Below are positions 315-29,711 of a stretch of DNA of 64,000 bases, piece after piece; the stretch's first letter is position 1, and every line of letters starts with the position of its first letter. The stretch covers positions 148,674-212,673 of the forward strand of contig CAJBYO010000005.1 of NCBI GenBank assembly GCA_903959905.1, given 5' to 3'. Below the pieces are notes generated by a model that made no database searches, was not told where the DNA came from, and was given only the letters and a program-made list of their open reading frames with translations. A program made the translations under genes and the position numbers. The stretch is from an uncultured Bacteroidales bacterium (GTDB lineage: Bacteria > Bacteroidota > Bacteroidia > Bacteroidales > FEN-979).

Positions 315-1085
315 TTATATGTCACTTTTATCGATGTCTTTTTTATTTTGATTCTTAATGCGTTGATAACCAAAAAATTCAAGTTCCTCCAACAATTCCA
401 GGTTGCATTTCACAATGTCATTATGGCTCATTTCGTCAGGATAACGTAATAATTTTCCGGTGTTGTATTGTTTTTTTCCCTTTATTGGATTAATAGTCAG
501 AGAATTGATCACTTCCATGACAATTGAAGATTCAAATTCGATGTTAATAAAATTCGTAAACCGATTTAATTCATATACGGGATTCATTAATAAGTCATGA
601 TAGGTATAGGTTTCGCATAAACCGGACCGAACCCATTCAATTCCGGTCCTGCAAAAACCTTTTACGATGGGTATTGAGTTCTGTACTGTATCAAACTGCA
701 AAAAGAAGGTGCTCTTCGCCGGATGAAGGAGTGAACGGGTTCCATGATCAATCGCTGACAGGATCACGTCACGCGGGTCGCGGTGAATATAAGTCGCAAG
801 AATTTGTTTATTTAAAATGAGGTCTCTTATCTGATTGGTTAACGACGAATGTGTCTTTACAACAAAAGGTCCAATTTTTTTACTTAAGTCAACAAGGTTT
901 CCAAGGGTTTCCGGTGACTCAATATCATGCACAAAGATCCCGATACCATTAACTTTTCCTTCTTTGATCAATTGCTCAAATTCAGCCTGTCCATTATTGG
1001 GCATCAAACGTTTCAGAACACCTTTTTGATATAGTGATAACAGGGTCGAACCGGATTTGGGCATTCCCACACTTAGAACAAACAT
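315..1085 (-). CDS. PAPS-dependent sulfotransferase family protein
   Basis: 256-aa ORF. It has the N-terminal 5'-phosphosulfate-binding loop GMPKSGSTLL and the 3'-phosphate-binding motif YIHRDPRDVILSA, the two hallmark motifs of the sulfotransferase fold. Confidence 0.75.
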   Translation of the reverse strand: MFVLSVGMPKSGSTLLSLYQKGVLKRLMPNNGQAEFEQLIKEGKVNGIGIFVHDIESPETLGNLVDLSKKIGPFVVKTHSSLTNQIRDLILNKQILATYIHRDPRDVILSAIDHGTRSLLHPAKSTFFLQFDTVQNSIPIVKGFCRTGIEWVRSGLCETYTYHDLLMNPVYELNRFTNFINIEFESSIVMEVINSLTINPIKGKKQYNTGKLLRYPDEMSHNDIVKCNLELLEELEFFGYQRIKNQNKKDIDKSDI

Positions 1086-6418: not shown

Positions 6419-7573
6419 TTGAATAAAAAGGCAGTCATTGTATTGGGTACACATCGTAGCGGGACCTCAACAGCTTCCGGGATTCTTTACACACTTGGTC
6501 TTGACCTTGGAAATGCCGTAATGGGAGGTAATGATTGCAATCCAAGGGGTTTTTTTGAGAACTACAGGATCATGTTTTACAATGAAGACCTATTGTGCAA
6601 ACTCCATGCAAACTGGCATAATACGGTAGTACTTCCCATTGACTGGTGGAAATCCGATGAGATCCGTGCAGAAATTGATCGGCTGAAAAACCTCATCCTT
6701 GATGATTATCGTTCAGATGCCCCCTTATTGTTCAAAGATCCAAGGATGTGCATCCTGCTTCCTGTTTATCTTGAAGTTTTCAAGCAACTGGAGATAGAAC
6801 CGTTTTTCGTATTGGCTTACCGTAATCCCCTTGAAGTTACGGAATCCCTTCAAAAACGCGATGGATTCTCACACGATAAATCTATTCGGATCTGGCTTGA
6901 TCATATGTTAAAGGCGGAAAAATATTCCCGGCAATATCCCCGCATTTTTATTGATTTTGGAGATATTCTTGTTGACCCACTTTCACTGCCGGAAAAAATT
7001 CATTCTTTTTTTCCCCCGGAGATTCAGATTAGAACAGGCATAAGAGAAAAGATCCTTCAGTTTGTTGAACCAGAATTGAACCATTACATCGGAATCCGCG
7101 ATCCTGAGTCATTAGCCTATGATGCGGACAGAATGGGGATCTTTGAACTTTTCAGGCAATTCGTTCATCGACAGGACACTTCCGTAGATCATGAATATCT
7201 TGATGGCTATTCCTCGATGTTTTATAACACCTATAACTCAGCAGCCTGGCCAAAAATATCTGTGCTCATGATGGCGGGAAATGAACCGGCTGCTTTAGAG
7301 AAAACAATCGTGAACGTTGTTACCCAGGATTATCCTGACCTTGAAAGCATCCTAATCTGGAGCGATCCGGCAATGGCTGTGCAGGCAGTCATCGAGAAAT
7401 ACAGGCATCTCGTTTCGATATGTGTCAGTGAACAAGGCTATGGACTTGCCGACGCCAGGAACAGGGGCATCGAACAGGCGTCGGGCAAATGGAAGATATT
7501 GATGGAGGCAGGCGAAGCATTTTTCCGGCAATCATCCCTTACTGAACTTGTGGGAAGGAGGGAACAGTCCTGA
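6419..7573 (+). CDS. Sulfotransferase fused to a degenerate, truncated GT2-like domain
   Basis: TTG start. N-terminal half has VLGTHRSGTSTASG (5'-PSB loop) and AYRNPLEVTESL (3'-PB motif). The C-terminal ~100 aa (ISVLMMAGNEPAALEKTIVNVVTQDYPDLESILIWSD...ARNRGIEQASGKW) has GT2 layout, but the DD and DxD acidic positions are replaced and the domain stops early. Confidence 0.65.
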   Translation: MNKKAVIVLGTHRSGTSTASGILYTLGLDLGNAVMGGNDCNPRGFFENYRIMFYNEDLLCKLHANWHNTVVLPIDWWKSDEIRAEIDRLKNLILDDYRSDAPLLFKDPRMCILLPVYLEVFKQLEIEPFFVLAYRNPLEVTESLQKRDGFSHDKSIRIWLDHMLKAEKYSRQYPRIFIDFGDILVDPLSLPEKIHSFFPPEIQIRTGIREKILQFVEPELNHYIGIRDPESLAYDADRMGIFELFRQFVHRQDTSVDHEYLDGYSSMFYNTYNSAAWPKISVLMMAGNEPAALEKTIVNVVTQDYPDLESILIWSDPAMAVQAVIEKYRHLVSICVSEQGYGLADARNRGIEQASGKWKILMEAGEAFFRQSSLTELVGRREQS

Positions 7574-7688
7574 CCTCTGCACCAAAGTTGATTTCCCCAT
7601 TTTTTCTATCTTTGCATCAAACCGGGCAGGCCTTGAACAAGTACGGAGCAGCCTGTCCTGGTATCCATTTACATCATACACCTCATGC

Positions 7689-10600
7689 ATGACCAGTAAG
7701 GCAAAGCAAGTATTGTTTTCAGTCAAATCTGATTTTACTTCACTTTTTACAAGTCTTACGATATGCATACTTACCTACTTTTCTTTTTTTACTGACATCG
7801 CAAGACAGCCTGCAAGCAGTTTCCCTGACAGGAGTATTGGGATTGCCGTCGTTTCAGGGGTGGATGCGAATCTGCGTACTTTACACTACTGCCTCATTAT
7901 ATTCTTTAGTGTCATCCTGATCTTTGCGCTGACTGTTTTGTTTTCATGGGTTAACAGGCTGGTGACCCGATTAACAAACCGGATTTATCTCCAGGCAGAG
8001 CATTCTATCCAGTTCGTACTTTCCATTTTTTCGGTTTTTCTTGTTTTCTACGCAATCGTCAGGGGAGATCTTTTTATCATGAAAATTGCGGGGGTTCTCC
8101 TGATTTTCATTGCGTTTCTCTATTATCTTATTTTACTGAAGACAGCAGTCTTTCGAAAAGCGCCTGCTATTTATCGCTATTATAAGGACTATTCAAGCCT
8201 AACACTCTCATTAATCTTATCATTTGCATTGATTTTTGCAGGGTGGGCCCTGTGGGGTATCCCTTTGGCGTTTACAAAGGCCCATGTGTTCTTTTACTTT
8301 ATGTTCAATGTGGTCTTTATCACCACCTATCCTCTATTGTTGCAATGGATAGGTTTAAGCCCGGGAAAAGTAAAGGCTCCAAACCTGTTGGCCACAATTC
8401 CACTGGCGCTGATTCCGGCTATGCTGCCTGTTTCCAACGAAATGCAATATGCACTGTCGGGAATCGTAAAGATTCAGCCACAGGAGTTTGCGGGGTTGAT
8501 CATCGGGTTATTGTTCCTGTTAAGCGTTCTGTTCTATGTGTTATTTTTATTCAAGCCGAGGCCAGTTAATGTATCATCGTTTGTAAGATCATTTTTATTT
8601 CCGGTCATCATTATTGGTTTTTATATGTGCCTGGAAGTAGATGGTTTCGTGAAGTTTAAGACTTTTGACCTGTTTCACAACGGGGAAAGAATGCTGGTAA
8701 CCCAGCAGCTTTTCTCTTTTGGAAGGATTCCATTTATTGATATAATTCCCACTCATGGGATCATGGACTTTTTCGGTCAGGCTCTTTATTCAGCAGTAAA
8801 TGGTTATCGCGGACCAGAAATGTTCTTATGGCAATGGATACCGGTTTTGGCTGGAATCCTGTTGATGTACTTCATGCTTGCGCGGTTGATCTCGCCTGTT
8901 TTCAGTTTCCTTTTAATTCTCGTGACACCTGAAGTATTCATATTTAACGATTATTACACGTTATGTTTAGTCATACCCCTTGTTTTTCTGTGGGTTATCA
9001 ATCGACCAAACCTGACAAGGTACCTGGTGCTGTGGTTGTCGATAGTGCTGTTGTTTTTCTGGAGATATGATTTCGGTGTTATTGCCATTGTTACCTCTTT
9101 TTGCTTAGTCCCCGGCGTTTACTTTGTAAAATCAAATGATGCATTGACCTACAGTTCCATGTTAAGGGCATTCAAACCTGCTGTGATTGCATTTGTTATT
9201 GTTTTTTCTGTGTCGCTGCTTCTCTATTCCCTGATTTTATTGTTAAATGGCCAGAATCCTGTTGAGATGCTGGGGCAATTTTATATTTACTTTAAAAGTC
9301 AGGCACCCACACAGTCACTCGTTGACGTATTTAACAGTTACAACTTGTATTTTCTGCTGGAATATATCGTTAGTCCGATGATTTCCATATTGTACATCGT
9401 ATTTTATTTGAATTCCCTGATATTCAGGAAAGTTGACTTTAAGGCCCCGCAAATCCTATTGGCCTGGCTCGCGATATTTGCTGTTATCATGACGATGCGA
9501 ACGATTCAAAGGCATACGATACTTGAAGGGTTCAATCCTGTGCTTAGTATTTTTCTGCTTTGTACCATTCCTGTTTATTTTTCGCATACCAGCAAGTGGG
9601 TTTCCCATGCAGTCTTTATATTTACATTCCTGATATATACAATGTTACTGGCAAATATGCAGAAACGGGTCTATGTGAGAATAAACCCGGTGAACCTTAT
9701 TCCCAAGGATCAACTGTATAATTTCTTTTCATTTCCAAATAAAGCATCAAGGGTAACTATCAGTGATTCTTCGCAATTTAAAAATTTCAAAAAATTCTGT
9801 GATGCACAGCTCAAAAGTGATCAGACATTTTTTGATTTTTCCAATGCCCCTTTACTCTATGTTTTCACAAACAGGATGTTTCCTGCTCATCTTATCCCGA
9901 ACCTTTTCCAGGCAGCCGATCCGATTGAGGATTACCTGATAAAACGTTTGGATACTTATTTGAAAAGCGGGAAAATGCCATTGGTCCTGTTCAAACAGAA
10001 CACAGGATGGGATTCTATTGATGGTGTACCGCAACCAGTGAGGAGCTACCGGGTGGCAGAGTTTATCTACAGGAACTATATTCCATTTGCCAAGATAGAC
10101 AATTATGAGATCTGGAAAAGTAAACTGAGCCATTTAGACCTGGAGAAACCAAATGTGATCTCACCGGTTTTCCGGAAACACCCTGAGAATAGAATCCGGG
10201 AAATTGAAATCAGAGATTTTACTGCAGACAGTATCACCATGCATACTTACGGCGGAGACTCCCATATATTTAATGCACTGGATTTCGGAAAAGGTTTACC
10301 ACTGGACTCGTCCAGGGTGTATAAACTCTCCTTATCCTCTAGAAGTAGTCTTCCTGGGACCTTTCAAATTTTTTATTCTGTGAATGGATCACCATTTAAT
10401 GGAAAAGAGAGTATTTCTTTCCAGGTCAACGGGGGAAACTCCAAACAGGAGAGGTCTTTCATTCTCCCTAAATTTAGAGAAGGATCATTTCTGACCGATT
10501 TAAGGTTCGACCCTCCTTCCGGCGCAGATTTCTGCCTGTTTAAGCCGGTAATAACCGCAGCATTTTTTTTACCGGTTGACCGTACAGACCCCCAGATCTT

Positions 10601-10994
10601 TAACCTTAAAAAATTGCCTTATATCTGGGCAAATTTCGATGAAAAGAAGGCCTCCACAAAAACAGAAATTCTTGAGGACCATTTAATAAAAGACACCAGC
10701 CTGGGATCGATGGAATCAAAAAGTATCGCGATAGGTGCGGATTTTGACAAAAATGATGGCAACTACCTGCACCTGTTTATCAGTGCAAAAGACAGCGGCC
10801 AGGTTTCGATCTCTTACGGTAATTATTATACCTCGACGATTCAATTTGATCTGGAACCGACAGGAAAGACAGAACAATACCTGGTAAGAGTAAGTATGCA
10901 ATGGGCCTGGATGAACGACCGGATCGATAAAATTACTGTCCGGAGTTCCGTTCCGGTTATTTTTAGCAGGATGGTTATCAGAAAAGGAGACTAA
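7689..10994 (+). CDS. Very large polytopic membrane protein (~20+ TM segments) with a ~420-aa C-terminal soluble beta-rich region; family unassigned, possible GT-C/polymerase-like enzyme
   Basis: ORF 7548-10994. The likely start is the ATG at 7689 (MTSKAKQ..), just before the first hydrophobic segment. The stop overlaps the next start (TAATG). The C-terminal third is hydrophilic with beta-sandwich-like sequence (..LTDLRFDPPSGADF..). Confidence 0.55.
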   Translation: MTSKAKQVLFSVKSDFTSLFTSLTICILTYFSFFTDIARQPASSFPDRSIGIAVVSGVDANLRTLHYCLIIFFSVILIFALTVLFSWVNRLVTRLTNRIYLQAEHSIQFVLSIFSVFLVFYAIVRGDLFIMKIAGVLLIFIAFLYYLILLKTAVFRKAPAIYRYYKDYSSLTLSLILSFALIFAGWALWGIPLAFTKAHVFFYFMFNVVFITTYPLLLQWIGLSPGKVKAPNLLATIPLALIPAMLPVSNEMQYALSGIVKIQPQEFAGLIIGLLFLLSVLFYVLFLFKPRPVNVSSFVRSFLFPVIIIGFYMCLEVDGFVKFKTFDLFHNGERMLVTQQLFSFGRIPFIDIIPTHGIMDFFGQALYSAVNGYRGPEMFLWQWIPVLAGILLMYFMLARLISPVFSFLLILVTPEVFIFNDYYTLCLVIPLVFLWVINRPNLTRYLVLWLSIVLLFFWRYDFGVIAIVTSFCLVPGVYFVKSNDALTYSSMLRAFKPAVIAFVIVFSVSLLLYSLILLLNGQNPVEMLGQFYIYFKSQAPTQSLVDVFNSYNLYFLLEYIVSPMISILYIVFYLNSLIFRKVDFKAPQILLAWLAIFAVIMTMRTIQRHTILEGFNPVLSIFLLCTIPVYFSHTSKWVSHAVFIFTFLIYTMLLANMQKRVYVRINPVNLIPKDQLYNFFSFPNKASRVTISDSSQFKNFKKFCDAQLKSDQTFFDFSNAPLLYVFTNRMFPAHLIPNLFQAADPIEDYLIKRLDTYLKSGKMPLVLFKQNTGWDSIDGVPQPVRSYRVAEFIYRNYIPFAKIDNYEIWKSKLSHLDLEKPNVISPVFRKHPENRIREIEIRDFTADSITMHTYGGDSHIFNALDFGKGLPLDSSRVYKLSLSSRSSLPGTFQIFYSVNGSPFNGKESISFQVNGGNSKQERSFILPKFREGSFLTDLRFDPPSGADFCLFKPVITAAFFLPVDRTDPQIFNLKKLPYIWANFDEKKASTKTEILEDHLIKDTSLGSMESKSIAIGADFDKNDGNYLHLFISAKDSGQVSISYGNYYTSTIQFDLEPTGKTEQYLVRVSMQWAWMNDRIDKITVRSSVPVIFSRMVIRKGD

Positions 10995-12975: not shown

Positions 12976-14652
12976 TTACCATGCAACATTGTATCCTGCA
13001 TTTTTGAGATCCCACCTTCTAAGGGATGAGGGGATGTCTCTCTGTCTAACAGTAAGTTGAGAACATTTCATATACAAGTCGTAATATTTGAAGTTCAGAG
13101 CAGGGTCAGAGTTTAAAGCTTTGTTTATAACCCATAGATTGCGGTAAACATCCGTTAACCATGGTGATACCACTAGATCCGAAATGCGTTTTTGCAAATC
13201 ATTCTGAATTAAAATCAACTGATCTTTATAATTAGTCATTGGATATACAATAACTTGAATATTTCCAAAAGTATAAACTGGATAGTGAGATTTAATATGC
13301 AATCCTGTAACAATAAAGTAGATATTGGTGGCAGATTGGACGTGTTGTACTTCGGAATAATCTTTTAGTTCATACCGTTTATATATAATGTCATTGAGAT
13401 ATGGAGTGATATTCAGATTACTAGACCAATCGTTAGAGAGTACCGTATTTCCTTTAGCTGAATTCTTGATGAAAGCGGCAACGTTTCCCCATGGTTGATG
13501 AATTTTTACTTTATATCCTTGTATGAAGGTTGGAACCCAGGTTGAAACCAGCAAAAGTGTAATAATTGTTATTGCAATACCTTTTTTTACTGGTATAATT
13601 GTGGAAAGATATATAATACCTTCTGCAATAAAAATGACACAAATAGGCATTAAAAAAATCAGAAAGCGTGTATAAGCATCAGGAAAGTGGGATATCCCTT
13701 GAATTGAAATTAATATGATTGATAATGGGATAAATGGTATTAGTATTAATAATGGGTTATTATATACTCTTATGGTCAGAAAGATTGCACTAAGCATAAG
13801 GAATGCTGATGCCCACGAATAAAAACCAGCTCCAAAATAGCTAGAGAATGCGAAAAATATATATGAAATACTTGTTGGTGGAGAATCATGCCATCGAAGA
13901 CCCCAGGCGGAAATATCTTCTATGAGGTTCAGGTATGAGATTAATGAGATTGCCATTGAGATTGACATAGGTATCAATAATGTTAAAAACTTATTTTTAT
14001 CTCTATTTACAAGAATAAAGTACAACTCTATACCTGCAAGAGAAAAGATGTATGCCAAAGTATAAGCTCCATTCAAGTGACTTAACATAAGCACATAGCT
14101 TGCCAGCGCCAAATAAATACCGTTCTTGAATGTGCGATTTGTATACCATTTGAAAAACAAAATAATTGTCAATAAAGACATTGCTGCTAAGAAAGAATAT
14201 GCTCTGATAATTCCGCTATAGGAAATCATATAGGGATTAAAAGCTATGAGAGTGGCTGCGACAAGAGCAGTTTTTTTTGACGCAAGCATTTTTGTTAATA
14301 TCGCAGTTAATGGAATAGTTGCGATTCCAGCGAGTTCGGGCAATATGGAAAGAGATATTTGATTCCCACATGCTATTTTTAAGAGATATTTTTCTGATAG
14401 TATAAAATAATTCATGGTAAGCCAGGGTTCAAAGTGCGTTAATAAATAACCTGCACTTTTTTTCAAATAGATAAGTGTTGCAACTTCATCGCCCACAAAA
14501 GGCCTGTTATAATGGTAAAAAAACCTGGTAATTGTTCCTCCAATAACTAAAAGGAGCAAATAGAAAATTTCATTTTTCGAAAAAGATTGTTTTCTGTTCT
14601 CGCTATTGATATACTTTTCTATCATAGTAATTTTCCTTAGGGATAATTGCAA
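12976..14652 (-). CDS. GT-C fold glycosyltransferase, ArnT/PMT-like (GT39/GT83-like)
   Basis: 558 aa with >10 TM segments. The first-loop acidic motif RPFVGDEVATLIY is typical of ArnT/PMT enzymes. There is a C-terminal soluble domain. The gene is visibly very AT-rich. Confidence 0.6.
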   Translation of the reverse strand: MQLSLRKITMIEKYINSENRKQSFSKNEIFYLLLLVIGGTITRFFYHYNRPFVGDEVATLIYLKKSAGYLLTHFEPWLTMNYFILSEKYLLKIACGNQISLSILPELAGIATIPLTAILTKMLASKKTALVAATLIAFNPYMISYSGIIRAYSFLAAMSLLTIILFFKWYTNRTFKNGIYLALASYVLMLSHLNGAYTLAYIFSLAGIELYFILVNRDKNKFLTLLIPMSISMAISLISYLNLIEDISAWGLRWHDSPPTSISYIFFAFSSYFGAGFYSWASAFLMLSAIFLTIRVYNNPLLILIPFIPLSIILISIQGISHFPDAYTRFLIFLMPICVIFIAEGIIYLSTIIPVKKGIAITIITLLLVSTWVPTFIQGYKVKIHQPWGNVAAFIKNSAKGNTVLSNDWSSNLNITPYLNDIIYKRYELKDYSEVQHVQSATNIYFIVTGLHIKSHYPVYTFGNIQVIVYPMTNYKDQLILIQNDLQKRISDLVVSPWLTDVYRNLWVINKALNSDPALNFKYYDLYMKCSQLTVRQRDIPSSLRRWDLKNAGYNVAW

Positions 14653-14706: not shown

Positions 14707-15669
14707 TTATGCTTCAAGGTTGCGTTGGAAACATCGGCTGTAAATCTCAATTAACTCCTTATGGGTTAATTTTACAAGTATGTCATCAGGAGTTTCGCCC
14801 CCAAGCATAGGTATTCGCTCCCTGATGGCCACCATCTCACATTCCCTGATCATTTCGGATGTAACCGGGTTCTCGTCTGCGCCTGTCTGGATACATGTCA
14901 ACAGATACTCATCTTCCTGCCTGATATTAAATTGAATCATTTTTCGCGACGGAGACCATTTTCCATAAGTAGCTGCAAGACGGCGATTGACAAAGGTTGC
15001 CAGGGTTGCCCTTTCCTCTTCAGGAATATCACTCAGATGATCAGGCTTATCCTGGAAAATTGTGCGGTTACCATGGGGGATGTGATATAGTGTATCAAGG
15101 TCGAAATCATTGCGCGTCAGTCCTGCCGCTGCAAGACGCTGGTAAAGGTCACTGTCGTCCCATCCATAGAACTTGATGAACTCATTGTACCCGTTTACAC
15201 TAAAAAAATCTTCGCGATGCAGATAAACAATGCCGTTCAGATGCATCTCATTATCGTTGCGACGTATCCTCCAGTTTCCGCAGTAAAACTTCCCAGGTTC
15301 AAGAATGTGTTTTTCGAAAAAACGAGGTAGAATTTTAACATCGGCATCAATTTTAAGAATTTTGGTCCTGGAGGTGAGTCTGGCAGCAAGGTTATAGGCA
15401 AACGACAGGATCCATTTTGGCTGATCACTGACTACAGCCAGAATGATCTTTCCGTTCTGGTACTTTTGAACTAATGGCAGCAGGGTTAAATCAGATCCCC
15501 AGTCAACGATAATAATTTCATCAATCTCTTCATGGGTGATCCATGTTTTCAATGCTTCTTCAAAGGACTCCTGCCTGTTTTTTACAGCAGTGATCAGGGA
15601 AATTCCTTTTTTTATTTCTTCCTGACTTGCTTGAGAATCATTCGTGGAAATCCTGCGGATATTTACCAT
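14707..15669 (-). CDS. Glycosyltransferase (GT-A fold, GT2/galactosyltransferase-like)
   Basis: ISLITAVKNRQESFEEALKTW...IIIVDWGSD and a DxD motif in LKIDADVKI. Overlaps the SxtJ-like gene by 7 nt. Confidence 0.6.
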   Translation of the reverse strand: MVNIRRISTNDSQASQEEIKKGISLITAVKNRQESFEEALKTWITHEEIDEIIIVDWGSDLTLLPLVQKYQNGKIILAVVSDQPKWILSFAYNLAARLTSRTKILKIDADVKILPRFFEKHILEPGKFYCGNWRIRRNDNEMHLNGIVYLHREDFFSVNGYNEFIKFYGWDDSDLYQRLAAAGLTRNDFDLDTLYHIPHGNRTIFQDKPDHLSDIPEEERATLATFVNRRLAATYGKWSPSRKMIQFNIRQEDEYLLTCIQTGADENPVTSEMIRECEMVAIRERIPMLGGETPDDILVKLTHKELIEIYSRCFQRNLEA

Positions 15670-19917: not shown

Positions 19918-21519
19918 TTATTTCCGGCGAAACAACCGTAACGGTGCAAGCAGAATTCGCCCGGTCTTCCATGTACGTGAGTTTACCATCGAGTTGATTA
20001 CCTCTTTATGGGCGGCTACTTCAGACCTCAACTTTTCAATGTCAAGTTTGGTTTTATCAATTGCTTCGGCGTAATTTAAATCCTTTTCAGCGATGGTCCG
20101 TGCAAGGTGGTCAATGTGTTGCAGGTTTGACTCATTGATCTTCATGAACTCGTATTCTTTTTGCTGGTACATATCCCAGAATGACTTCTGTTCTGCATGC
20201 AGTGATTTGATAATCCCTTCGTAGCCACCTTTTATTGTTTCTACTGATTCTGAATGCACGGCTTTTATGTTAGCAATCAGCACCTCATATTCAGTTTTTA
20301 CTCGTGCCACATCCTGGTCATGGTTTGTTTTAAGGTCGGCGGCACGTTGATCATGCTTTAAATTCAAACTTGCAACTTCCTGGTTGTGTGCGGTTCGAAG
20401 TCCGGTGACAAATTGAGCATGTTCTGTCTTTAAATAGTTTATATACTGGTCGTATTCTGTTTTTAAATTCGAGATAATCTGACCATATTCTACTTTAAAA
20501 CCATTGACAGTCCGCTCGTGCATCTTCTCCATATTTTTAAGAATTGCGTAGTGTTCGGCTTTTATTGTTCTGAGTATATTTTCCTGTGCCGAATTCAAAT
20601 TTGTGATTTTCGCATCAAATTCTGATTTCAAAGCTGCTTTAGATTCTTCATGTTGCATTTGCATGACAGAAAATGATTCATTGAATTCTGATTGCTGATC
20701 GGCAACATGTTGATTGAGCCTGACTGTTTGTTCTTCTAATTCCCTGATACTACTGAGATATTCATTTTCCCGAAGTTTTGCCAACGGGTAAAAGAATGGA
20801 GATGTTCCCTGGTATAAATCACCATTATGTATGTCAAGGTCAAAGTATTTTACCACATTGTCAGGAAAATCAAGGTAAAGTGAATAATCACCTCCCTGGG
20901 ATGATTTGCCTCCAGTTGCAAAAAAAGCAATAATTTTTTCGGTATATGTGAATTTATACTTGGCCCAGCAGCGAAAATTGTAATCCCAGTCGGATGTAAC
21001 TTTATATTTTGTATTGTAATAACCAACAAGGCTTTTGACACTTTTAGGATACAATATGCTTTGATGGCATATATTCCATTTAAATAATTTTTCAAGCGTA
21101 AACGGCCCGTCATATATGGAATTGTCTTTTGCCCATGGCGCATCCCCTTTGATCATTACATTTCCATAGATGACGTGTTCTTCGCTGAACAATCCCTGTT
21201 CAAAAAGATCGGTCAGCACGTTTTCATTATAAAAGGTATCATCGGCACCCATGAAATAAATCCAGTCACCAGTACAAAGATCCATGCCCTTATTCATCGC
21301 ATGATAGATGCCCTCATCTTTTTCGGTTAACAACCGGATGTTTTTATGTTGCTTCTGATACTTGCGAATTGTTGGAAGTGTCTTATCTGTTGAGGCGCCA
21401 TCAACAATGATGTGCTCAATATTCGTATATGTCTGATTGGCTACCGACAAGAGGGTTGTCTCAATAGAATCCCCGATGTTAAATGTTGGGGTTATGATAG
21501 TAATCTTTGGTAGAAACAT
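19918..21519 (-). CDS. GT2 glycosyltransferase fused to a long hendecad-repeat helical domain and a basic amphipathic C-terminal tail
   Basis: The N-terminal ~230 aa is GT2 (ITIITPTFNIGDSIETTLLSVANQTYTNIEHIIVDGASTDKT, FMGADD). Residues ~286-450 hold 15 tandem 11-residue repeats. The C-terminal tail is NSRTWKTGRILLAPLRLFRRK. Confidence 0.8.
   Translation of the reverse strand: MFLPKITIITPTFNIGDSIETTLLSVANQTYTNIEHIIVDGASTDKTLPTIRKYQKQHKNIRLLTEKDEGIYHAMNKGMDLCTGDWIYFMGADDTFYNENVLTDLFEQGLFSEEHVIYGNVMIKGDAPWAKDNSIYDGPFTLEKLFKWNICHQSILYPKSVKSLVGYYNTKYKVTSDWDYNFRCWAKYKFTYTEKIIAFFATGGKSSQGGDYSLYLDFPDNVVKYFDLDIHNGDLYQGTSPFFYPLAKLRENEYLSSIRELEEQTVRLNQHVADQQSEFNESFSVMQMQHEESKAALKSEFDAKITNLNSAQENILRTIKAEHYAILKNMEKMHERTVNGFKVEYGQIISNLKTEYDQYINYLKTEHAQFVTGLRTAHNQEVASLNLKHDQRAADLKTNHDQDVARVKTEYEVLIANIKAVHSESVETIKGGYEGIIKSLHAEQKSFWDMYQQKEYEFMKINESNLQHIDHLARTIAEKDLNYAEAIDKTKLDIEKLRSEVAAHKEVINSMVNSRTWKTGRILLAPLRLFRRK
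20170..20664 (-). repeat. Protein-level tandem repeat: 15 x 11 aa (hendecads), consensus [LIVM]-K-T-E-[HY]-x-Q-x-[IV]-x-x
   Basis: In-register list: MQMQHEESKAA / LKSEFDAKITN / LNSAQENILRT / IKAEHYAILKN / MEKMHERTVNG / FKVEYGQIISN / LKTEYDQYINY / LKTEHAQFVTG / LRTAHNQEVAS / LNLKHDQRAAD / LKTNHDQDVAR / VKTEYEVLIAN / IKAVHSESVET / IKGGYEGIIKS / LHAEQKSFWDM. Confidence 0.85.
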
Positions 21520-21832: not shown

Positions 21833-22444
21833 ATGAAAAAAATTCTTTATCTGGCTGTTGCGCTGGTTTTTATCCTCAGTGCCTGTACTCAAAAAACCCC
21901 AAAAGAGCTCCTTGATTCGGCTGAAGCCAAGGTTAAAGCCGGTGAATTTAAAGAAGCAATTGTTGATTTTGATAAAGCAATTGAATTAGAACCGGGAAAT
22001 ACCCAGGCCCTTTTTCATCGTGGAAACACAAAGACTTGTGTGTCAGACTTCAAAGGCGCAATAGAAGATTATGGGAAAGTGCTCATTTTAGATCCGAAAG
22101 ATGGGAATGCCTACGCCTGCCGTGGAAACTGTAAAAAAATTACAAAGGATTATACAGGCGCAATTATAGAATTTGACAATGCAATGAAATTCAAGGTTAA
22201 TGAACCCGCAAAGGTTTATCAATTAAGGGGCTTCTGTAAAATGCAAACCGGCGATCTTCCTGGTTCGCAGGCAGACCTTGACAAGGCCATTGAACTCAAT
22301 CCAAATTCTGCTGATGCATTTTTATACAGGGGACAGCTGAAAATACAAACCGGCGTGTTACCAGAAGCCTGTGCTGACCTTGCCAAGGCTTCCGGGTTGG
22401 GGCAGAAGGAAGCAGATGACTTGATCAAGAAGCACTGCAAGTAG
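21833..22444 (+). CDS. TPR-repeat lipoprotein
   Basis: Lipoprotein signal MKKILYLAVALVFILSAC, then ~5 TPR-like units (..AIVDFDKAIELEPGNTQALFHRG.., ..DLDKAIELNPNSADAFLYRG..). Confidence 0.8.
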   Translation: MKKILYLAVALVFILSACTQKTPKELLDSAEAKVKAGEFKEAIVDFDKAIELEPGNTQALFHRGNTKTCVSDFKGAIEDYGKVLILDPKDGNAYACRGNCKKITKDYTGAIIEFDNAMKFKVNEPAKVYQLRGFCKMQTGDLPGSQADLDKAIELNPNSADAFLYRGQLKIQTGVLPEACADLAKASGLGQKEADDLIKKHCK

Positions 22445-22699: not shown

Positions 22700-24007
22700 A
22701 TGAATGATACCCGATTAATTGCCTTTTATCTGCCACAGTTTCATCCGATTCCGGAAAACGATGTTTGGTGGGGAAAAGGTTTTACGGAATGGAGAAATGT
22801 GGTTGCCGCCAAGCCTGTTTTCCCGGAACACTATCAGCCTCACTTACCGGCAGATCTGGGTTTTTACGACCTCCGTATACCCGAAGTCCGTGAAGCACAG
22901 GCTCAAATGGCCCGTGATCATGGGATTTACGGTTTCTGTTATTATTTCTATTACTTCAATGGCAAAAGGTTGTTGAACAGGCCATTGGATGAGAATCTTG
23001 CCTCTGGAAAACCGGATTTCCCTTTTTGCATATGCTGGGCCAATGAAAATTGGACCCGGAGATGGGATGGCAACGATTCGCATATCTTAATTGAACAGGT
23101 TCATTCACAGAAGGATGATATTGATTTTATTCATCAACTGATCCCTGTGTTAAAGGACAAGCGTTATATTCGTGTCAACAACAAGCTGTTACTGCTTGTT
23201 TACAGGGTGGATCGCATGCCGGAACCCCTGGAAACAGCCTCAACCTGGCGGGAAATCGTAAAAAAGGAACTCAATGCTGAGTTGTATCTGTGCGCAGTCA
23301 ATAACTTCGTGAAAGATATTGACCCTGTCAAGATAGGGTTTGATGGAACAGTTCAGTTTCCACTCGACTTTCATCCGAGTTGCCGGGTTGATATAGAACG
23401 ATTTGCCCAGGCCAATGAGCTTGATTTCGCAAACATAAAGGATCACTGGATCATTGATTACCCGAGAATAATCCAACAAATGGCCAGCCTGGAAAAACCC
23501 AGATATAAATTTTTCAGAGGGGTCTTTCCATCCTGGGACAATACGCCGAGAAGACAAAATTCCAGTGCGATTTTCATCAATTCTTCCCCCGACCTGTATA
23601 AACTATTTTTAAAGGCAACACTGGCACTTACCCGCGCTGAGCATGCAGGTGATGAACAACTGGTTTTCATTAATGCCTGGAATGAATGGGCAGAAGGAGC
23701 ACATCTGGAACCTGACCAAAAATACGGAATGAGATGGCTGGAAGCCACGAAGGAGGCAATGGATGAGGTTGATGATAAGGCTGATGCGTTGGAAGCACTT
23801 AGATCGCATTGTGGCGAAGACGCACTAAAAGTACCTGGTCTTTCCACACAATCCCAAAATGCACAGTTGCAATTTGAATCTCCTTTGAGTTCAGAAATTG
23901 ATGTAATATTAAATTCCTATACATTCAGGGCAGGTAAGTTGATCCTTTGGTTCCCAATCAGGATTCTCACTCTTTATAAACGGCTAACAAAGAAAAAACA
24001 TGAATAA
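22700..24007 (+). CDS. WbsX-family glycosyltransferase/glycoside-hydrolase-like protein (paralog 1, with C-terminal tail)
   Basis: IAFYLPQFHPIPENDVWWGKGFTEWRNV and CWANENWTRRWDG are the hallmark N-terminal blocks of the WbsX family. It carries an extra ~70-aa C-terminal extension ending NSYTFRAGKLILWFPIRILTLYKRLTKKKHE. Confidence 0.75.
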   Translation: MNDTRLIAFYLPQFHPIPENDVWWGKGFTEWRNVVAAKPVFPEHYQPHLPADLGFYDLRIPEVREAQAQMARDHGIYGFCYYFYYFNGKRLLNRPLDENLASGKPDFPFCICWANENWTRRWDGNDSHILIEQVHSQKDDIDFIHQLIPVLKDKRYIRVNNKLLLLVYRVDRMPEPLETASTWREIVKKELNAELYLCAVNNFVKDIDPVKIGFDGTVQFPLDFHPSCRVDIERFAQANELDFANIKDHWIIDYPRIIQQMASLEKPRYKFFRGVFPSWDNTPRRQNSSAIFINSSPDLYKLFLKATLALTRAEHAGDEQLVFINAWNEWAEGAHLEPDQKYGMRWLEATKEAMDEVDDKADALEALRSHCGEDALKVPGLSTQSQNAQLQFESPLSSEIDVILNSYTFRAGKLILWFPIRILTLYKRLTKKKHE

Positions 24008-26585
24008 GAGGCCCAGGATACTGATTATTTCTTACAACATACCCCGGCCGGATAAAAGTTCGGGAGAACTCCGGTTTGTGGCTATTCTGGATTTGTTATC
24101 CAAATTCTGGGACCTGGATTTTTGTGTGGCCAACTCTCACGCTGAATGGAATGCCACTGAAGAATTGGTTCCTTACATTGAAAAGCTTGAGGCAATGGGC
24201 ATCCGTGTTTACAGGCCTTCAAAGGATGCATTCAGCAGGGCCGTCAATGAAAACCAGTATGCCGGTGGTTATTTTAACCTCTACTGGATTGCCGAGGAGA
24301 TGATGCCCCTGTTTAAATCGGCTCAACCCGGTGCCTTTACGATTGTTGATTCGGTGGATGTTCACTTTGCACGCGAGGCGACACAGGCGAAACTTGGTGC
24401 CATTGAGATGTCAAAGGTTATGCAAACGAAGAAAAGGGAACTCGGTGTTTATAAGGCTGCCGATGTTGCCATTGCCGTGAGTAAGGACGACCTCCATCTG
24501 CTTACTGTTACTGAAGGATTGAAGAATATATTCCTCATTCCAAATATTGTAAGGGAGTTTCCCAGAACCGTGGGGAAACGCAAGCCTGTTGTAGTTTTTA
24601 TTGGAAGTTATGCTTGGTATCCTAACCCGGAAGCGGTTATTTGGTTTACTGAATTGATCTGGCCAGCAATTTATAAATCAACTCCTGAGGCAGAATTTTT
24701 AATTATCGGCAGTGACCCCACGCCGGAAATACTGGCATTGGGCACAGTTCCAGGCGTTAAGGTGTTAGGATATGTTCCTGAAACGAAACCGTACCTTGAA
24801 ATGGCTGCTGTTTCTGTTGCTCCACTCAGGGTGGGCGGGGGTATGAAGGGAAAGGTGAACGAAGCAATGGCCCATGGTATTCCTGTGGTAGCCACCAAAA
24901 TCGGTGCGCAGGGCTTTGAAGCAGTTCATGGGAAACAAATGATGATCACTGATGATCCGGACGAATTTGCCGAATGTGTGACAGCACTTATATCGAATGA
25001 TGCATTGCAGCAGGAAATGGGGCTGGCAGGTCAAAAACTTAATTCGGCCATATGTTCATACCAGGCGGTCAATGAGAAAATCAGAGATCTTGTTATTCAC
25101 TGCAATTCATTGATAACGACGATCCCCATCGTACCTGCTGTGAACTCACCTGTTCCTGAATCAACCAAATTATCCTTTTTCATCAAAGATTTCGGGTATG
25201 CGCTGCAATTGTTGAAAAGGGATGGACTTAGAGAGTTTTTCAAAAGGATGTGGTTATATCTTCATGGACAGCGATTACCGGTTGGTACGAATGATCAGGA
25301 AAAAAAAAAAAAAGAAATAACCAGGATTGAAAAGGCCACTGAGCCTCCTCAATTTTTTGAAACGACCAACCCCAGCTTTGCAAGCATAGAATTTCCAAAG
25401 ATATCCGAGACTCCAACAGTTTCTATCATTATCCCGGTTTATAACCAATGGGATTTTACCTATGCTTGCCTTGACTCTATTCTGAAAAACACCGGGGGCA
25501 TTTCTTACGAGATTATTTTAGCGGATGATAATTCAACAGATGAAACAAAATTTGTTGAACAATCTGTAAAGAACATCCATGTTGTCAGAAATGAAATGAA
25601 CCTTGGATTTCTTTTCAACTGCAACAATGCGGCAAAGTTTGCAAAAGGGAAATTCCTGATTTTTTTGAATAATGACACGCTTGTTCAGCCTGAATGGCTG
25701 AATTGGCTTTTAAAGACCATGGCAGATAATGCCGATGTAGGAATGGCCGGATCTAAATTCATGTTTTCTACCGGAGAATTGCAGGAAGCAGGCGGCATTG
25801 TCTTCACGGATGGTTCAGCAACGAATTATGGCAGATATGACTGGCCCAATGTATCGCACAATAATTACTTAAAGGATGTTGACTATTGTTCAGGCGCTTG
25901 CATTTGCGTACGGCACGAATTATGGCTGAAGGTTGGAGGCTTTGATCCGATCTATTCGCCCGGTTATTATGAGGACACCGACCTTGCAATGAAGATAAGG
26001 TCAATCGGGTACAGGACTGTTTATCAGCCAAAATCGGTGATTATCCATTTTGAAGGGGTTTCACACGGTTCGGATCTTACAACCGGCATCAAGAGCAAGC
26101 AGACTGAAAATCAACATATTTTTTTGAAAAAGTGGAAAAATGAGTTGGAAAAGAATAACTATGCCAGGTACGAGAATTTGTTCAGGGCAAGGGATAAAAG
26201 CAAACACAAGCATGTCGTTCTTCTCATCGATTACTGTGTTCCAACCTGTTCCAGCCAGATTGATAAACAAAAGTATTTCCATATTTTGAATTCTTTGCTG
26301 GAGAAGAGGATGAAAGTCATAATTTTACCTGATAATTTTTATAAAACAGAACCTGAAGTTTCTGACCTGGAACAAAAAGGAATTGAGGTTTTATACGGAG
26401 GGTGGTACCGTGAAAACTGGTGGCTGTGGTTTACTGAAAATTTCGTCAACATTAACACCATCATTTTTATTGATAAGCCAATTGCTGATAAATATATCCC
26501 AATGATCAAGACCATTCCCAGCGCTAAATTTAACATTGAAGTTATCAGGCAAGGAGTTGAATTTGACATCCGGAATATTTTGTAA
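24000..26585 (+). CDS. Three-domain glycosyltransferase: GT4 (N) - Lys-rich linker - GT2 - partial Rossmann (GT-B N-half-like) C-terminal domain
   Basis: GT4 block GGMKGKVNEAMAHGIPVVATKIGAQGF. GT2 blocks VSIIIPVYNQWDFTYACLDSILKNT..EIILADDNSTDET, FLNNDT and YYEDTDL. The C-terminal HKHVVLLIDYCVPT.. echoes the N-terminus RILIISYNIPRPD... The start overlaps the upstream stop by 8 nt. Confidence 0.8.
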   Translation: MNKRPRILIISYNIPRPDKSSGELRFVAILDLLSKFWDLDFCVANSHAEWNATEELVPYIEKLEAMGIRVYRPSKDAFSRAVNENQYAGGYFNLYWIAEEMMPLFKSAQPGAFTIVDSVDVHFAREATQAKLGAIEMSKVMQTKKRELGVYKAADVAIAVSKDDLHLLTVTEGLKNIFLIPNIVREFPRTVGKRKPVVVFIGSYAWYPNPEAVIWFTELIWPAIYKSTPEAEFLIIGSDPTPEILALGTVPGVKVLGYVPETKPYLEMAAVSVAPLRVGGGMKGKVNEAMAHGIPVVATKIGAQGFEAVHGKQMMITDDPDEFAECVTALISNDALQQEMGLAGQKLNSAICSYQAVNEKIRDLVIHCNSLITTIPIVPAVNSPVPESTKLSFFIKDFGYALQLLKRDGLREFFKRMWLYLHGQRLPVGTNDQEKKKKEITRIEKATEPPQFFETTNPSFASIEFPKISETPTVSIIIPVYNQWDFTYACLDSILKNTGGISYEIILADDNSTDETKFVEQSVKNIHVVRNEMNLGFLFNCNNAAKFAKGKFLIFLNNDTLVQPEWLNWLLKTMADNADVGMAGSKFMFSTGELQEAGGIVFTDGSATNYGRYDWPNVSHNNYLKDVDYCSGACICVRHELWLKVGGFDPIYSPGYYEDTDLAMKIRSIGYRTVYQPKSVIIHFEGVSHGSDLTTGIKSKQTENQHIFLKKWKNELEKNNYARYENLFRARDKSKHKHVVLLIDYCVPTCSSQIDKQKYFHILNSLLEKRMKVIILPDNFYKTEPEVSDLEQKGIEVLYGGWYRENWWLWFTENFVNINTIIFIDKPIADKYIPMIKTIPSAKFNIEVIRQGVEFDIRNIL
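25300..25313 (+). repeat. A14 homopolymeric tract inside the inter-domain linker of the three-domain GT
   Basis: Counted directly: ...cagg + 14 a + gaaata, read as CAG GAA AAA AAA AAA AAA GAA = QEKKKKE in frame. Confidence 0.9.
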
Positions 26586-26611: not shown

Positions 26612-27712
26612 TTGAACCAGAAGGCAATCATTCTTGCACATTACCTGCCTCAGTTTCACCCAATTCCTGAAAATGATGTTTGGTGGGGAAAGGGGTTTAC
26701 TGAATGGACGAACACCGCGAAGGCAAAGCCATTGTTTCGCGGTCATGTGCAACCGAATCTTCCGGCCGATCTGGGCTTTTATGATCTCCGTGTTCCGGAA
26801 GTCAGAGAGCAACAGGCGGAACTGGCAAGAAATCATGGCATTACCGGTTTTGCGTATTGGCATTACTGGTTTGGAAATGGTCAGCAGATTCTTGAACGGC
26901 CATTTAATGAAGTTCTTCAAAGCGGACAGCCTGATTTCCCTTTTTGCCTGGCCTGGGCGAATGAGTCGTGGACCGGTGTGTGGCATGGCCTGAAGGATCA
27001 GATCCTCATGGAGCAAAAATATCCCGGGGAGGCTGATCATATCCTTCATTTTAACCATGTATTGCCTGCTTTTCAGGATAAAAGGTATATTAAAATAGAC
27101 AACAAACCAATCTTTATTATCTATCTGCCTCAATTTCTTCCTGATACGGCTAAGTTCACAAAACTTTGGAATGATCTTGCCATCCAAAATGGCTTTGCAG
27201 GAATGTTCTTCATTGGGATCTATACGATGGACTGGGATCATAAACTTGAGGGATTTGAAGAAAAGTCGGTTCATCCGCTGCATCAATATATGGCTATGTT
27301 TGAGGCCAGTTCATTTAGAAGGAAGAAAAACAACCTGATCAATTTTTTAATGCAGAGGCTAAAGTCTACCTATAACTATTCGGACCTCGTAAGAAACTAT
27401 AATTTTTCATGGCTGGACAATAATGACTTTGTTCCGACCATTTTACCTAATTGGGACAATACGCCGCGCTCTGGAAAGAAAGGGTATATAATTCATGGTT
27501 CAACGCCTGCCTTATTCCGGGAACATTTTATGTCGGTTGTTCAATTTGTCAAACAACAAACCACCAATAAAAATAATATTATCCTGCTTAAAAGTTGGAA
27601 TGAGTGGGCTGAAGGTAATTATCTGGAGCCAGACAGCCGGTGGGGGACAGGTTATCTCGAGGTTATTCGGGATGTTTTGAAGGAGTTTGACATGGACAGC
27701 AACTATTTATAA
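26612..27712 (+). CDS. WbsX-family protein (paralog 2, no tail)
   Basis: TTG start. ILAHYLPQFHPIPENDVWWGKGFTEWTN and CLAWANESWTGVWHG are colinear with the 22700 paralog. Confidence 0.75.
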   Translation: MNQKAIILAHYLPQFHPIPENDVWWGKGFTEWTNTAKAKPLFRGHVQPNLPADLGFYDLRVPEVREQQAELARNHGITGFAYWHYWFGNGQQILERPFNEVLQSGQPDFPFCLAWANESWTGVWHGLKDQILMEQKYPGEADHILHFNHVLPAFQDKRYIKIDNKPIFIIYLPQFLPDTAKFTKLWNDLAIQNGFAGMFFIGIYTMDWDHKLEGFEEKSVHPLHQYMAMFEASSFRRKKNNLINFLMQRLKSTYNYSDLVRNYNFSWLDNNDFVPTILPNWDNTPRSGKKGYIIHGSTPALFREHFMSVVQFVKQQTTNKNNIILLKSWNEWAEGNYLEPDSRWGTGYLEVIRDVLKEFDMDSNYL

Positions 27713-27815: not shown

Positions 27816-29711
27816 ATGAACGAGATCTCCCAGAAGAATTTGAAGGGTTCAGTTGTAGTAAGCCCGGTTAGAAAAACCTTTCAAGCTTTGACGGTCATTG
27901 GTTCAATGATTAGAAAAAGCAAGAATGCGGGGAATATACTATTGGTTTTATTTGCTCTTTTACTGTTGGTTTTTATAGTGGCGCCGTTCTATGGAGTTCT
28001 TCCCCTGGGCAGCGCGAGCTCGCTCGGAATACTATACACGGTATTGGGAAATATTGAATGCCTGACCAAAATGGGGCTTTGCACACCCTGTGCTCTTACA
28101 GGATTGCCCATTGGTGGTTATATGCCACTTGGCCTCTCGTTTACATATGTTGCATCCGCGATACAGTTATTAACAGGGACTTCAGTTTTGAATGCCTTCA
28201 GCCTTGCCGGTTTAATATTTCTATGTATCGGTTGGCTGGGAGTTTATAAAATAATCTCGGTTTTTGGGGGGAATAAGTTTTTTGCTTTCCTCGGAGGTTT
28301 ACTCTTCCTTTTTATGCCAATAGTTTATGCAAAAAGCGACTATGTTTATATGATGTGGGCGTTTGCGTCGGTTGCTTTCTATATCTGGCTGGATTTGTGG
28401 TATTTTCAATCAAAACGAGTTGCAATAAGTTTGCCTGTTGCTATACTGTCAAAAATATTCCTGGTTTTTCTGGGACCATACACCTTTGTAATGGCCTCGT
28501 TGTTTACTGGTGTGATCATACTTTATGAATTTATTAAAGCGATCAGGGCGAAAAAGGAACTGATAAAGTCACTTCTTAAAATTACTGGTCTTGGGCTGGC
28601 GCTTTTAATCGCCTATATATTTTACTCATTTTATATACCAGGGGGCAACAGTTATTCTGTGATGCCAATGAACTTTTTCCGGGGGCAGGGCATTGACCTT
28701 GCAGCTTTTTTTAACAGACCACTGGAGATGTACGCTTTTAATCAGTTTTGGAATGCACCTATTTCCAATTCAAAATTGTTTTATTCTGATGGAGAATCTA
28801 TATACCATGTTTATTTTGGGTTGAGCCTGATGCTGACAATCCCGTTGCTTGTATTTTTCAGAAAGCAAATCCGACCTCAACACTGGTTTTTCATCGCCAT
28901 TGGGGCAATAACACTGGTCCTTTCACTGGGCCCGTCCTTGAAAGTAAACAACCAGCGTGATCCATTGGAGGCAGGAACGAATACAGACACCTTCGTTTTT
29001 GAAGATTATTTAATGCCTGAGCAGTCTGCCACCGCCACTCTGCCTCATTCATTTATTTATAAAATTACACCGGTAAAATATATGCGGTCGGTAAGCAGGT
29101 GGTTAATGCCAACAATACTGATTTGTGTTGTTTCTCTTATGGTTCTGATCACCTGTTTATGGAGATATAACCGTTTTGGAAAGATACTGGCAGCTCTGTT
29201 ACTTCTTGGAGTAATTTTTGAATATTCACCAAATTATAAACAGAGGTTATTGAAAATTCAGGGAACAACTTCCATGTTTAATAATTTTAATGCTGATGCC
29301 TTGGCTGAATTTAAAGAACAGATACAACCAGGTGATCTTATCCTTTTCATCCAGAATGGAGGCCTTACCAATGAATACCTGTCAACCTACTTGTGCTCGA
29401 ATGTTGGATGCAGTTCGTATAATGTTTCAACTGACAAGGCCGTTGAACTTTCTTTACTGCATTGGCCAAAGGTGGTTACCGATGCAGCAATGAACCCGGA
29501 TAGGAAAACAATTCTGGCATTGCTTGAATCAAAGCAAGTGACGGCAATTGTATTTCCTCATTTTGATATGCGCTGGAATTCATACAGATGGCCTCCCGCG
29601 CCGGAAACTAAAACACAATTTTCGGAATTTGCCCGACAGTTTTCAGATGAAAGTGCTAACATTGCATTTCAAACCAATGAATGGTTTTCGTATATGAGGC
29701 TTAATCCATAG
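27816..29711 (+). CDS. Large polytopic membrane protein, possible GT-C-like glycosyltransferase (unassigned)
   Basis: 631 aa with ~12-14 hydrophobic segments, a ~60-aa loop (residues ~375-430) and a ~150-aa C-terminal soluble region. It lies directly upstream of a GtrB-like GT2. Confidence 0.4.
   Translation: MNEISQKNLKGSVVVSPVRKTFQALTVIGSMIRKSKNAGNILLVLFALLLLVFIVAPFYGVLPLGSASSLGILYTVLGNIECLTKMGLCTPCALTGLPIGGYMPLGLSFTYVASAIQLLTGTSVLNAFSLAGLIFLCIGWLGVYKIISVFGGNKFFAFLGGLLFLFMPIVYAKSDYVYMMWAFASVAFYIWLDLWYFQSKRVAISLPVAILSKIFLVFLGPYTFVMASLFTGVIILYEFIKAIRAKKELIKSLLKITGLGLALLIAYIFYSFYIPGGNSYSVMPMNFFRGQGIDLAAFFNRPLEMYAFNQFWNAPISNSKLFYSDGESIYHVYFGLSLMLTIPLLVFFRKQIRPQHWFFIAIGAITLVLSLGPSLKVNNQRDPLEAGTNTDTFVFEDYLMPEQSATATLPHSFIYKITPVKYMRSVSRWLMPTILICVVSLMVLITCLWRYNRFGKILAALLLLGVIFEYSPNYKQRLLKIQGTTSMFNNFNADALAEFKEQIQPGDLILFIQNGGLTNEYLSTYLCSNVGCSSYNVSTDKAVELSLLHWPKVVTDAAMNPDRKTILALLESKQVTAIVFPHFDMRWNSYRWPPAPETKTQFSEFARQFSDESANIAFQTNEWFSYMRLNP

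Follow-up and report, generated by a model that had tools for sequence, protein, structure and literature searches.

A GT2 Glycosyltransferase on a Hendecad-Repeat Stalk in an Uncultured Bacteroidales Bacterium: A Candidate Ruler of Polysaccharide Chain Length

Introduction

In ATP-binding cassette (ABC) transporter-dependent polysaccharide systems that use chain terminators, an extended coiled-coil protein serves as a marker and the terminator is located at its distal end (PMC11231755; PMC5082667). Wherever such systems have been characterised, the polymerase modules lie near the membrane and the terminator lies distally (PMC11231755). WbdD of Escherichia coli O9a and Klebsiella pneumoniae O3 and O5 is a kinase-methyltransferase that terminates chains and is carried on a trimeric coiled-coil ruler, while WbbB of K. 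pneumoniae O12 and Raoultella terrigena and ORF7 of K. pneumoniae O4 are terminating 3-deoxy-D-manno-oct-2-ulosonic acid (Kdo) transferases of families GT99 and GT137 carried on coiled coils. The ruler concept is already known from these three proteins and from ORF6 of K. pneumoniae O7. Here, we describe a 533-residue glycosyltransferase (GT) of family GT2 (P0001), in which a catalytic head, a stalk with hendecad (11-residue) repeats and an amphipathic tail follow one another. According to the list of open reading frames (ORFs) and its translation, it is encoded at positions 19918-21519 on the minus strand of a 64,000-nucleotide stretch of DNA from an uncultured Bacteroidales bacterium (G000:C5:148674-212673; the whole stretch is called the window below).

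The closest solved relative of the catalytic head is WrtF, a repeat-unit polymerising fucosyltransferase (PMC12595478). WrtF also comes from an O-polysaccharide locus containing wzm, wzt and a carbohydrate-binding module (CBM), and its C-terminus was modelled as membrane-associating (PMC12595478). Because the layout of P0001 matches the terminator rule and its genomic context supplies an exporter with a carbohydrate-binding domain, we lean, by a little over even chances, towards reading the protein as a capping GT on a ruler stalk.

Results

Hendecad Array

The array comprises residues 275-450 (20170-20697, minus strand) and contains 15-16 units, as judged by its periodicity, by profile matches located exactly 11 residues apart and by the predicted helix. 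A first-pass annotation, made from the sequence alone, had aligned residues 286-450 without gaps as 15 units of 11 residues. These residues correspond exactly to positions 20170-20664 of the minus strand, and cutting them every 11 residues yielded 15 gapless units with the consensus L-K-x-E-H/Y-[DE]-Q-x-[IV]-x-N, an alignment that shuffle statistics bore out. The composition ascribed to the units was also reproduced. Position 1, said to be always hydrophobic, is M, L, I, V or F in 15 of 15 units, and position 2, described as mostly lysine, is K in nine of the 15. At position 5 a recount gave the same figure as before, 13 of 15 units with His or Tyr/Phe (H in eight, Y in four and F in one). Position 9 is hydrophobic in nearly all units.

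The analysis of hydrophobicity power confirmed the 11/3 periodicity named in the annotation. The power at period 11 reached z = 8.2, a value obtained in 0 of 2000 shuffles, and that at period 11/3 reached z = 7.2; no heptad signal was found in the array (z = -0.4 at period 3.5). Residue identity at a lag of 11 was 0.227, compared with a mean of 0.061 and a maximum of 0.143 in 5000 shuffles. When the units are drawn on an 11/3 helical wheel, residues 1, 5, 8 and 9 gather inside +/-65 degrees of each other and match the a/d/e/h stripe that hendecad coiled coils have. A profile derived from the protein family recognised an additional weak unit at residues 275-285 and left the degenerate last unit (440-450) unscored, so the unit count can be put at about 14-16. 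At the DNA level, Tandem Repeats Finder reported no array in the gene and the pairwise nucleotide identity between units averaged 44%. For this genome, the annotation was therefore right that the array is not a recent tandem duplication.

Structure Prediction of the Stalk and Tail

The array is framed by two conserved non-repeat segments. The lead-in, residues 243-274 (20698-20793, minus strand; ENEY..IxEL..), is conserved in the family alignment and starts where the predicted helix begins, at residue 243. The stalk base, residues 451-512 (19984-20169, minus strand; FW..QKE.EF...), was recovered as a consensus in two alignments and is also predicted to be helical. The stalk as a whole (243-512) is about 270 residues long and proline-free.

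AlphaFold2 (AF2) was used to fold single chains only. The model of P0001, built from a 30-sequence alignment, had a mean predicted local distance difference test (pLDDT) score of 82 and contained helix at residues 243-344 and 349-512. The model of the orthologue P0016 (593 residues) consisted, behind its head, of a single unbroken 325-residue helix (242-566) followed by the tail helix. A disordered or globular region, which the first-pass annotation had regarded as incompatible with its proposal, was not obtained; AF2 gave helix along the stalk instead. In our assessment, the region is very probably an extended helical coiled-coil spacer, and its chains would be expected to associate into an oligomeric parallel coiled coil.

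The basic amphipathic C-terminal tail that the annotation had pointed out does exist. It comprises residues 513-533 (NSRTWKTGRILLAPLRLFRRK; 19921-19983, minus strand) and was delimited by conservation, predicted helix and charge. Residues 514-533 carry a net charge of +7, residues 515-532 form a helix in the AF2 model and have a hydrophobic moment of 0.47, and S514, W517 and G520 are invariant or near-invariant across the family; relatives that lack the stalk end in this motif as well. The tail presumably anchors the protein at the membrane. The array has a net charge of -5, a hydrophobic moment of only 0.22 and a narrow apolar stripe.

A sequence search of the PDB with residues 243-533 gave no match even at E <= 10, and thus the stalk has no solved relative there. 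Foldseek comparison of both AF2 models with the PDB and BFVD matched the GT-A domains alone and found nothing for the stalk. Pfam matches of the stalk to TSNAXIP1_N, Gp58, Sds3, FBF1, DksA, HutZ and sll1863 were far under the cut-offs and were taken as coiled-coil noise.

GT2 Head Domain

Residues 1-242 (20794-21519, minus strand) were assigned by Pfam, Foldseek and alignment to a WrtF-like GT2 catalytic domain of the GT-A fold with a G91-A-D-D94 motif. The match to PF00535 had E = 3.7e-25 and 89.2 bits (cut-off 23.3). The best Foldseek matches of the head were the WrtF structures 9omk and 9omh (E = 1e-17, TM(target) ~0.7), and a phmmer comparison with WrtF gave E ~1e-15 when the whole protein was used and 3e-16 when only the head was used. 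Residues D68, G91ADD94, H152, D177 and F200 align to D66, G89ADD92, H142, D167 and F191 of WrtF, and D68, the GADD motif, H152, D177 and F200 are invariant or near-invariant in the family. Since these active-site residues matching those of WrtF are intact, the head looks catalytically competent, that is, like an active GT2 as far as can be read from its sequence.

Orthologues and Stalk-Length Variation

About 27 full-length orthologues, with 37-61% identity and lengths of 433-649 residues, were retrieved by a word-indexed search. Wherever a source is named, it is an uncultured member of the Bacteroidota or Bacteroidales, and a genome scan added metagenome-assembled genomes (MAGs) labelled Bacteroidales, Draconibacterium and Bacteroidetes. 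In 24 orthologues, profile matches were spaced by 11 or 22 residues, with 5 to 26 profile-scored units each, and the arrays of some contain fresh duplications of 11-, 22- or 33-residue blocks.

Stalk length was counted between two landmarks, the SPF[FY]Y motif that closes the GT domain and the tail motif S-x-T-W-K-x-G-K/R. Of the 27 distinct lengths, which range from 148 to 390 residues, 16 have the form 11n+5, and about 2.5 would be expected by chance. This quantisation indicates that nearly all change in stalk length was by whole hendecads, a mode of change which keeps the angular register of the head relative to the base. As a straight helix with a rise of 0.15 nm for each residue, the stalk would measure about 40 nm in P0001 and 22-58 nm in the family. 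A side observation concerns two metagenomic proteins, P0020 and P0022, which are about 97% identical outside the array and differ inside it by one 29-residue indel. This indel is not a multiple of 11 and may be an assembly artefact; taken at face value, it indicates that the array varies between close strains too.

More distant relatives that the GT domain has in Mucilaginibacter, Ferruginibacter and Flavobacterium (30-57% identity, 210-310 residues) consist of the GT and a basic amphipathic tail and have no stalk. Because these relatives are GT plus tail only, the stalk can be regarded as an inserted spacer. The Geotalea relative contains the GT, a 40-residue coil and the tail SLSWKVTAPFRF. 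In two further relatives from Bacteroidota MAGs (L024 and L026), a GT2 domain is joined to a GT7C-type domain and followed by a coil without an 11-residue signal and by the same tail. The second domain of these two proteins (GT2/Glyco_transf_7C) resembles a separate gene of the window (14707-15669, minus strand), and the fusion suggests that the WrtF-like GT2 and the enzyme encoded by that gene act together.

Recurrence of the Histidine-Bearing Hendecad

The first-pass annotation had suggested that the repeat consensus be sought in other polysaccharide loci and that a regular His/Tyr ladder could add metal or pH responsiveness. An exhaustive HMMER search with residues 243-533 gave 75 representatives at E <= 0.001, and the repeat proved to be widespread, mostly outside glycan enzymes. 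Most of the 75 are non-glycan proteins, including a fish AIG1-type GTPase, EF-hand and DUF2357 proteins, response regulators and giants of 2000-3900 residues. In most of these matches, the pattern phi-x-x-x-H-x-x-x-phi occurs at spacings that are multiples of 11. Unrelated proteins carry units such as VKAEHAQTLEA, IKTDHDKEIQN, LNTEHAEEIDR and LKQEHRSIVDN, and phi-K-x-E-H-x-x-x-phi-x-x recurs in phase across dozens of unrelated bacterial and eukaryotic proteins among the matches P0122-P0194. Because it recurs in this way, histidine at a core position appears to be a recurrent flavour of hendecad coiled coils and not an adaptation of this enzyme; the idea of a metal- or pH-responsive device therefore found no support as a special feature of P0001. 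A literature search combining hendecad and histidine found no paper describing the His-bearing hendecad.

Genomic Context

The exporter genes lie upstream of the window, 3.4 kb before its start, and are separated from the hendecad GT2 by about 23 kb. They were identified by Pfam at G000:C5:142951-145284 as wzm (PF01061, ABC2_membrane) and wzt (PF00005, ABC_tran, and PF14524, Wzt_C), and the Wzt_C domain scored 58.6 bits (cut-off 30.4). The interval is filled with GTs and sulfotransferases. A gene with a Wzt_C domain was present in four of the four orthologue genomes searched; in three of them it adjoins the hendecad GT2 or lies about 10 kb off, and for the fourth its placement on the same contig is unconfirmed. 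A single large glycan locus extends from wzm and wzt to about 43.7 kb of the window and encodes many GT2 and GT4 enzymes, WbsX enzymes, methyl-, sulfo- and carbamoyl-transferases, dTDP-sugar (deoxythymidine diphosphate sugar) enzymes and large membrane proteins. No second extended coiled-coil-like region came up when every ORF between wzm and 44 kb was scanned crudely. GldD and type IX secretion sorting domains, both marks of Bacteroidota, were also detected.

The hendecad GT2 is followed by a group of genes on the opposite strand. A 203-residue tetratricopeptide repeat (TPR) protein with an apparent lipoprotein-type signal (LSAC) is encoded between it and the WbsX block (21833-22444, plus strand). 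Next come a WbsX-family enzyme without a stalk (22700-24007, plus strand; PF14307, E = 2.8e-136), which bears the tail motif NSYTFRAGKLILWFP, an 861-residue multidomain glycosyltransferase assigned by Pfam as GT4 + GT2, a candidate polymerase (24000-26585, plus strand), and a second WbsX-family enzyme without the tail (26612-27712, plus strand; PF14307, E = 2.3e-132, and synteny). On three long orthologous contigs, the hendecad GT2 is likewise divergent beside a 202/203-residue protein, a WbsX enzyme, a GT4-GT2 enzyme of about 850 residues and a second WbsX enzyme; TPR matches of the 202/203-residue protein were faint and occurred in only one of the three loci. A fourth orthologous locus carries a WbsX-GT4 fusion variant. 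The tail of the first WbsX, NS[YW]TF[RK]xG[RK]..[WL].P (window positions 23912-24004, plus strand), was also found in the three loci with a stand-alone first WbsX (L004, L008 and L009). It looks like a portable tail for docking to the membrane or to a partner, and the GT4-GT2 enzyme may be the polymerase of the conserved module.

The region just before the window (12952-17043 of L003, which is G000:C5:142951-147042) contains wzm, wzt and, after them, two sulfotransferase genes, and a third is located at window positions 315-1085 (minus strand); the orthologous loci likewise contain several. A sulfated polysaccharide is the probable product, with sulfate as an alternative candidate cap. Three polytopic membrane proteins had no Pfam match (7548-10994, plus strand, 1148 residues; 12976-14652, minus strand, 558 residues; 27816-29711, plus strand, 631 residues). 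The largest of them is conserved in the orthologous locus L008 (1100 residues), and all three may be GT-C-like periplasmic glycosyltransferases.

Discussion

Proposed Mechanism

P0001 would be the membrane-distal GT of a surface-polysaccharide pathway of Bacteroidota that depends on a Wzm/Wzt ABC transporter, and its head would most likely be the chain-terminating (capping) enzyme. The stalk (243-512) is envisaged as a rigid, nearly straight parallel alpha-helical coiled coil that holds the head off the inner face of the cytoplasmic membrane. Its variable core would be formed by the hendecads, with L1, H/Y5, x8 and V/I9 at the core positions, while the stalk base and the tail (513-533) would lie at the membrane. 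There, the tail-bearing WbsX and the GT4-GT2 enzyme could elongate the lipid-linked glycan, and the base (451-512) is a candidate docking region for polymerase components by analogy with WbdD (PMC11231755). Capping would then be restricted to chains long enough to reach the head. The C-terminal carbohydrate-binding domain of Wzt would read the capped end and allow export, following the logic of WbdD and WbbB. By gain or loss of 11-residue units, each adding about 1.65 nm, evolution has tuned the stalk and with it, presumably, the product length.

The first-pass annotation had proposed that the domain sets glycan length or holds the GT2 at a constant spacing from the membrane through the tail. 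The Wzt_C-containing locus, the synteny with polymerase-like GTs, the stalk-less relatives and the length quantisation all support this proposal of a ruler or spacer with a tail anchor, and none of them proves it. Several points weigh against the capping ruler. We know of no GT2 shown to act as a terminator, and the terminator GTs known to us are the Kdo transferases of GT99 and GT137. The two-GT heads of L024 and L026 (GT2 + GT7C-type) would be expected equally of a polymerase, and the sulfo-, methyl- and carbamoyl-transferases of the locus could provide the cap instead. Eleven of the 27 distinct stalk lengths fall off the 11n+5 series; for the most part they belong to the members that have diverged furthest. 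The implied stalk of about 40 nm is two to three times the 20 nm of WbdD. The AF2 model of P0001 has a low-confidence break at residues 345-348, with pLDDT < 50 at 340-347, and for this protein a fold-back is therefore possible. The case for a ruler is, finally, one built from sequence, models and context.

Alternative Explanations

The stalk could be a rod for oligomerisation or scaffolding only, which brings GT2 heads together as dimers or trimers and recruits partners and leaves chain length unaffected. Coiled coils commonly oligomerise, the conserved base and the tail shared with WbsX suggest that a complex is formed, and the present evidence includes no link to glycan length. However, plain oligomerisation requires neither 190-390 residues nor strict steps of whole units, GT plus tail suffices in the stalk-less relatives, and the context, with a carbohydrate-binding domain in Wzt and a single coiled-coil protein, fits the pattern of terminator-rulers; we consider such a rod unlikely. 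It is still less probable that the stalk is a spacer for a distal polymerase or branching enzyme and that a sulfo-, methyl- or carbamoyl-transferase of the locus adds the cap. The polymerising activity of WrtF (PMC12595478), the two GT domains before the coil in L024 and L026 and the several candidate capping enzymes nearby would agree with this arrangement. It would, however, reverse the order of the characterised systems (PMC11231755) and place the polymerase 40 nm from its lipid-linked acceptor, which is mechanistically awkward, and the other modifying enzymes of the locus lack an extended coil.

Two further explanations deny that the stalk stands upright. An 11-residue periodicity is also typical of amphipathic lipid-binding helices of the apolipoprotein, alpha-synuclein and perilipin type, and an array of this kind would lay the enzyme flat on the membrane. 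Weak Pfam Apolipoprotein matches were indeed obtained for two orthologues (18.8 and 24.9 bits), but these are far under the 90-bit cut-off and P0001 itself gave none. Bacterial inner membranes are anionic, and it is the tail (+7, moment 0.47) rather than the array (-5, moment 0.22) that has the charge and amphipathicity of a membrane-binding helix; the same repeat also occurs in soluble eukaryotic and bacterial proteins. On the grounds of charge, hydrophobic moment and sub-threshold scores, the lipid-binding reading was rejected as highly improbable. Just as little credence is given to a stalk that folds back into an antiparallel helical hairpin or bundle with the head near the membrane, as the break in the P0001 model might suggest. 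Artificial fold-back is common in monomer AF2 models of parallel coiled coils, and the position of the break is not conserved. Because the hendecad phase continues unbroken across it and the P0016 model is one continuous helix, a hairpin is unlikely. An extension of the capping ruler itself would make it quantised and switchable: the number of units (16-35 in nature) would fix the modal glycan length in increments of about 1.65 nm, and the core His/Tyr ladder would tie how the coil assembles, or how stiff it is, to cytoplasmic pH or a bound metal. We hold this extension to be very doubtful. If it were true, the length of the surface polysaccharide would answer to the environment, and the recurrence of the His-hendecad would point to a general, undescribed pH- or metal-sensitive coiled-coil module.

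Significance

To our knowledge, coiled-coil rulers of chain length have been established experimentally in only a few enterobacterial O-antigen systems. The family of P0001 would extend the ruler principle to Bacteroidota, to a GT2 head and to a stalk made of a regular hendecad array. It also offers a natural graded series of at least 16 stalk lengths that differ by whole 11-residue units in an otherwise conserved enzyme and gene module, which makes the ruler hypothesis directly testable by relating the modal chain length to the number of units. If the head is indeed a terminator, GT2 would join GT99 and GT137 among the families of chain-capping glycosyltransferases. A modular, non-supercoiling spacer of this type could possibly be used in the glycoengineering of polysaccharides of defined length.

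Comparison with Known Systems

Among the structures compared, the head of P0001 is matched best by WrtF of Rhizobium tropici CIAT 899 (a GT2 fucosyltransferase of the GT-A fold; PDB 9omh-9omn), which also ranks among its top sequence matches and shares with it a G-A-D-D motif instead of the usual DxD. The identity is only about 23%, and N143 of WrtF is replaced by Q153. Unlike P0001, WrtF is a protein of 279 residues without a coiled coil and acts in repeat-unit polymerisation. Fucosyl specificity belongs to WrtF and is not carried over to the enzyme of the window.

In its layout, P0001 is closest to the ruler proteins. Like WbdD, it has an N-terminal catalytic head, a predicted extended coiled coil, a conserved and presumably membrane-proximal region and a C-terminal amphipathic helix (PMC11231755; PMC5082667). 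It is also encoded together with wzm and a wzt whose product has a carbohydrate-binding domain, and it is the sole coiled-coil protein of its locus. In contrast to WbdD, the head is a GT2 and not a kinase/methyltransferase, there is no detectable sequence similarity, the phylum is Bacteroidota, the stalk would reach about 40 nm, compared with about 20 nm for WbdD, and the stalk lengths of orthologues vary by whole 11-residue units. The stalk is a sequence-repetitive hendecad array. With WbbB and ORF7 of K. pneumoniae O4, in which a GT is known to be the terminator, P0001 would share an ABC transporter-dependent pathway and a GT at a coiled coil's distal end (PMC11231755). Like ORF7, whose polymerase GTs are located in separate proteins, it is a stand-alone protein (PMC11231755). 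Its head differs from both in being a GT-A fold GT2 related to WrtF, and WbbB additionally carries polymerase GTs on the same polypeptide.

A hendecad-based periodicity giving nearly straight rods is common to the stalk and to the non-heptad rods Scy and FilP of Streptomyces, with which no homology is claimed; unlike P0001, these two are cytoskeletal proteins that lack an enzyme head. In precomputed results, two orthologues faintly matched Pfam Scy (PF28068), but hmmscan at E <= 0.01 did not recover the match. A literature search for hendecad together with glycosyltransferase found nothing. P0001 and its family may have been catalogued earlier; they differ from the described rulers in the WrtF-like GT2 head, the hendecad-array stalk and its greater length, the at least 16 lengths stepped by whole units and the WbsX and GT4-GT2 module of Bacteroidota.

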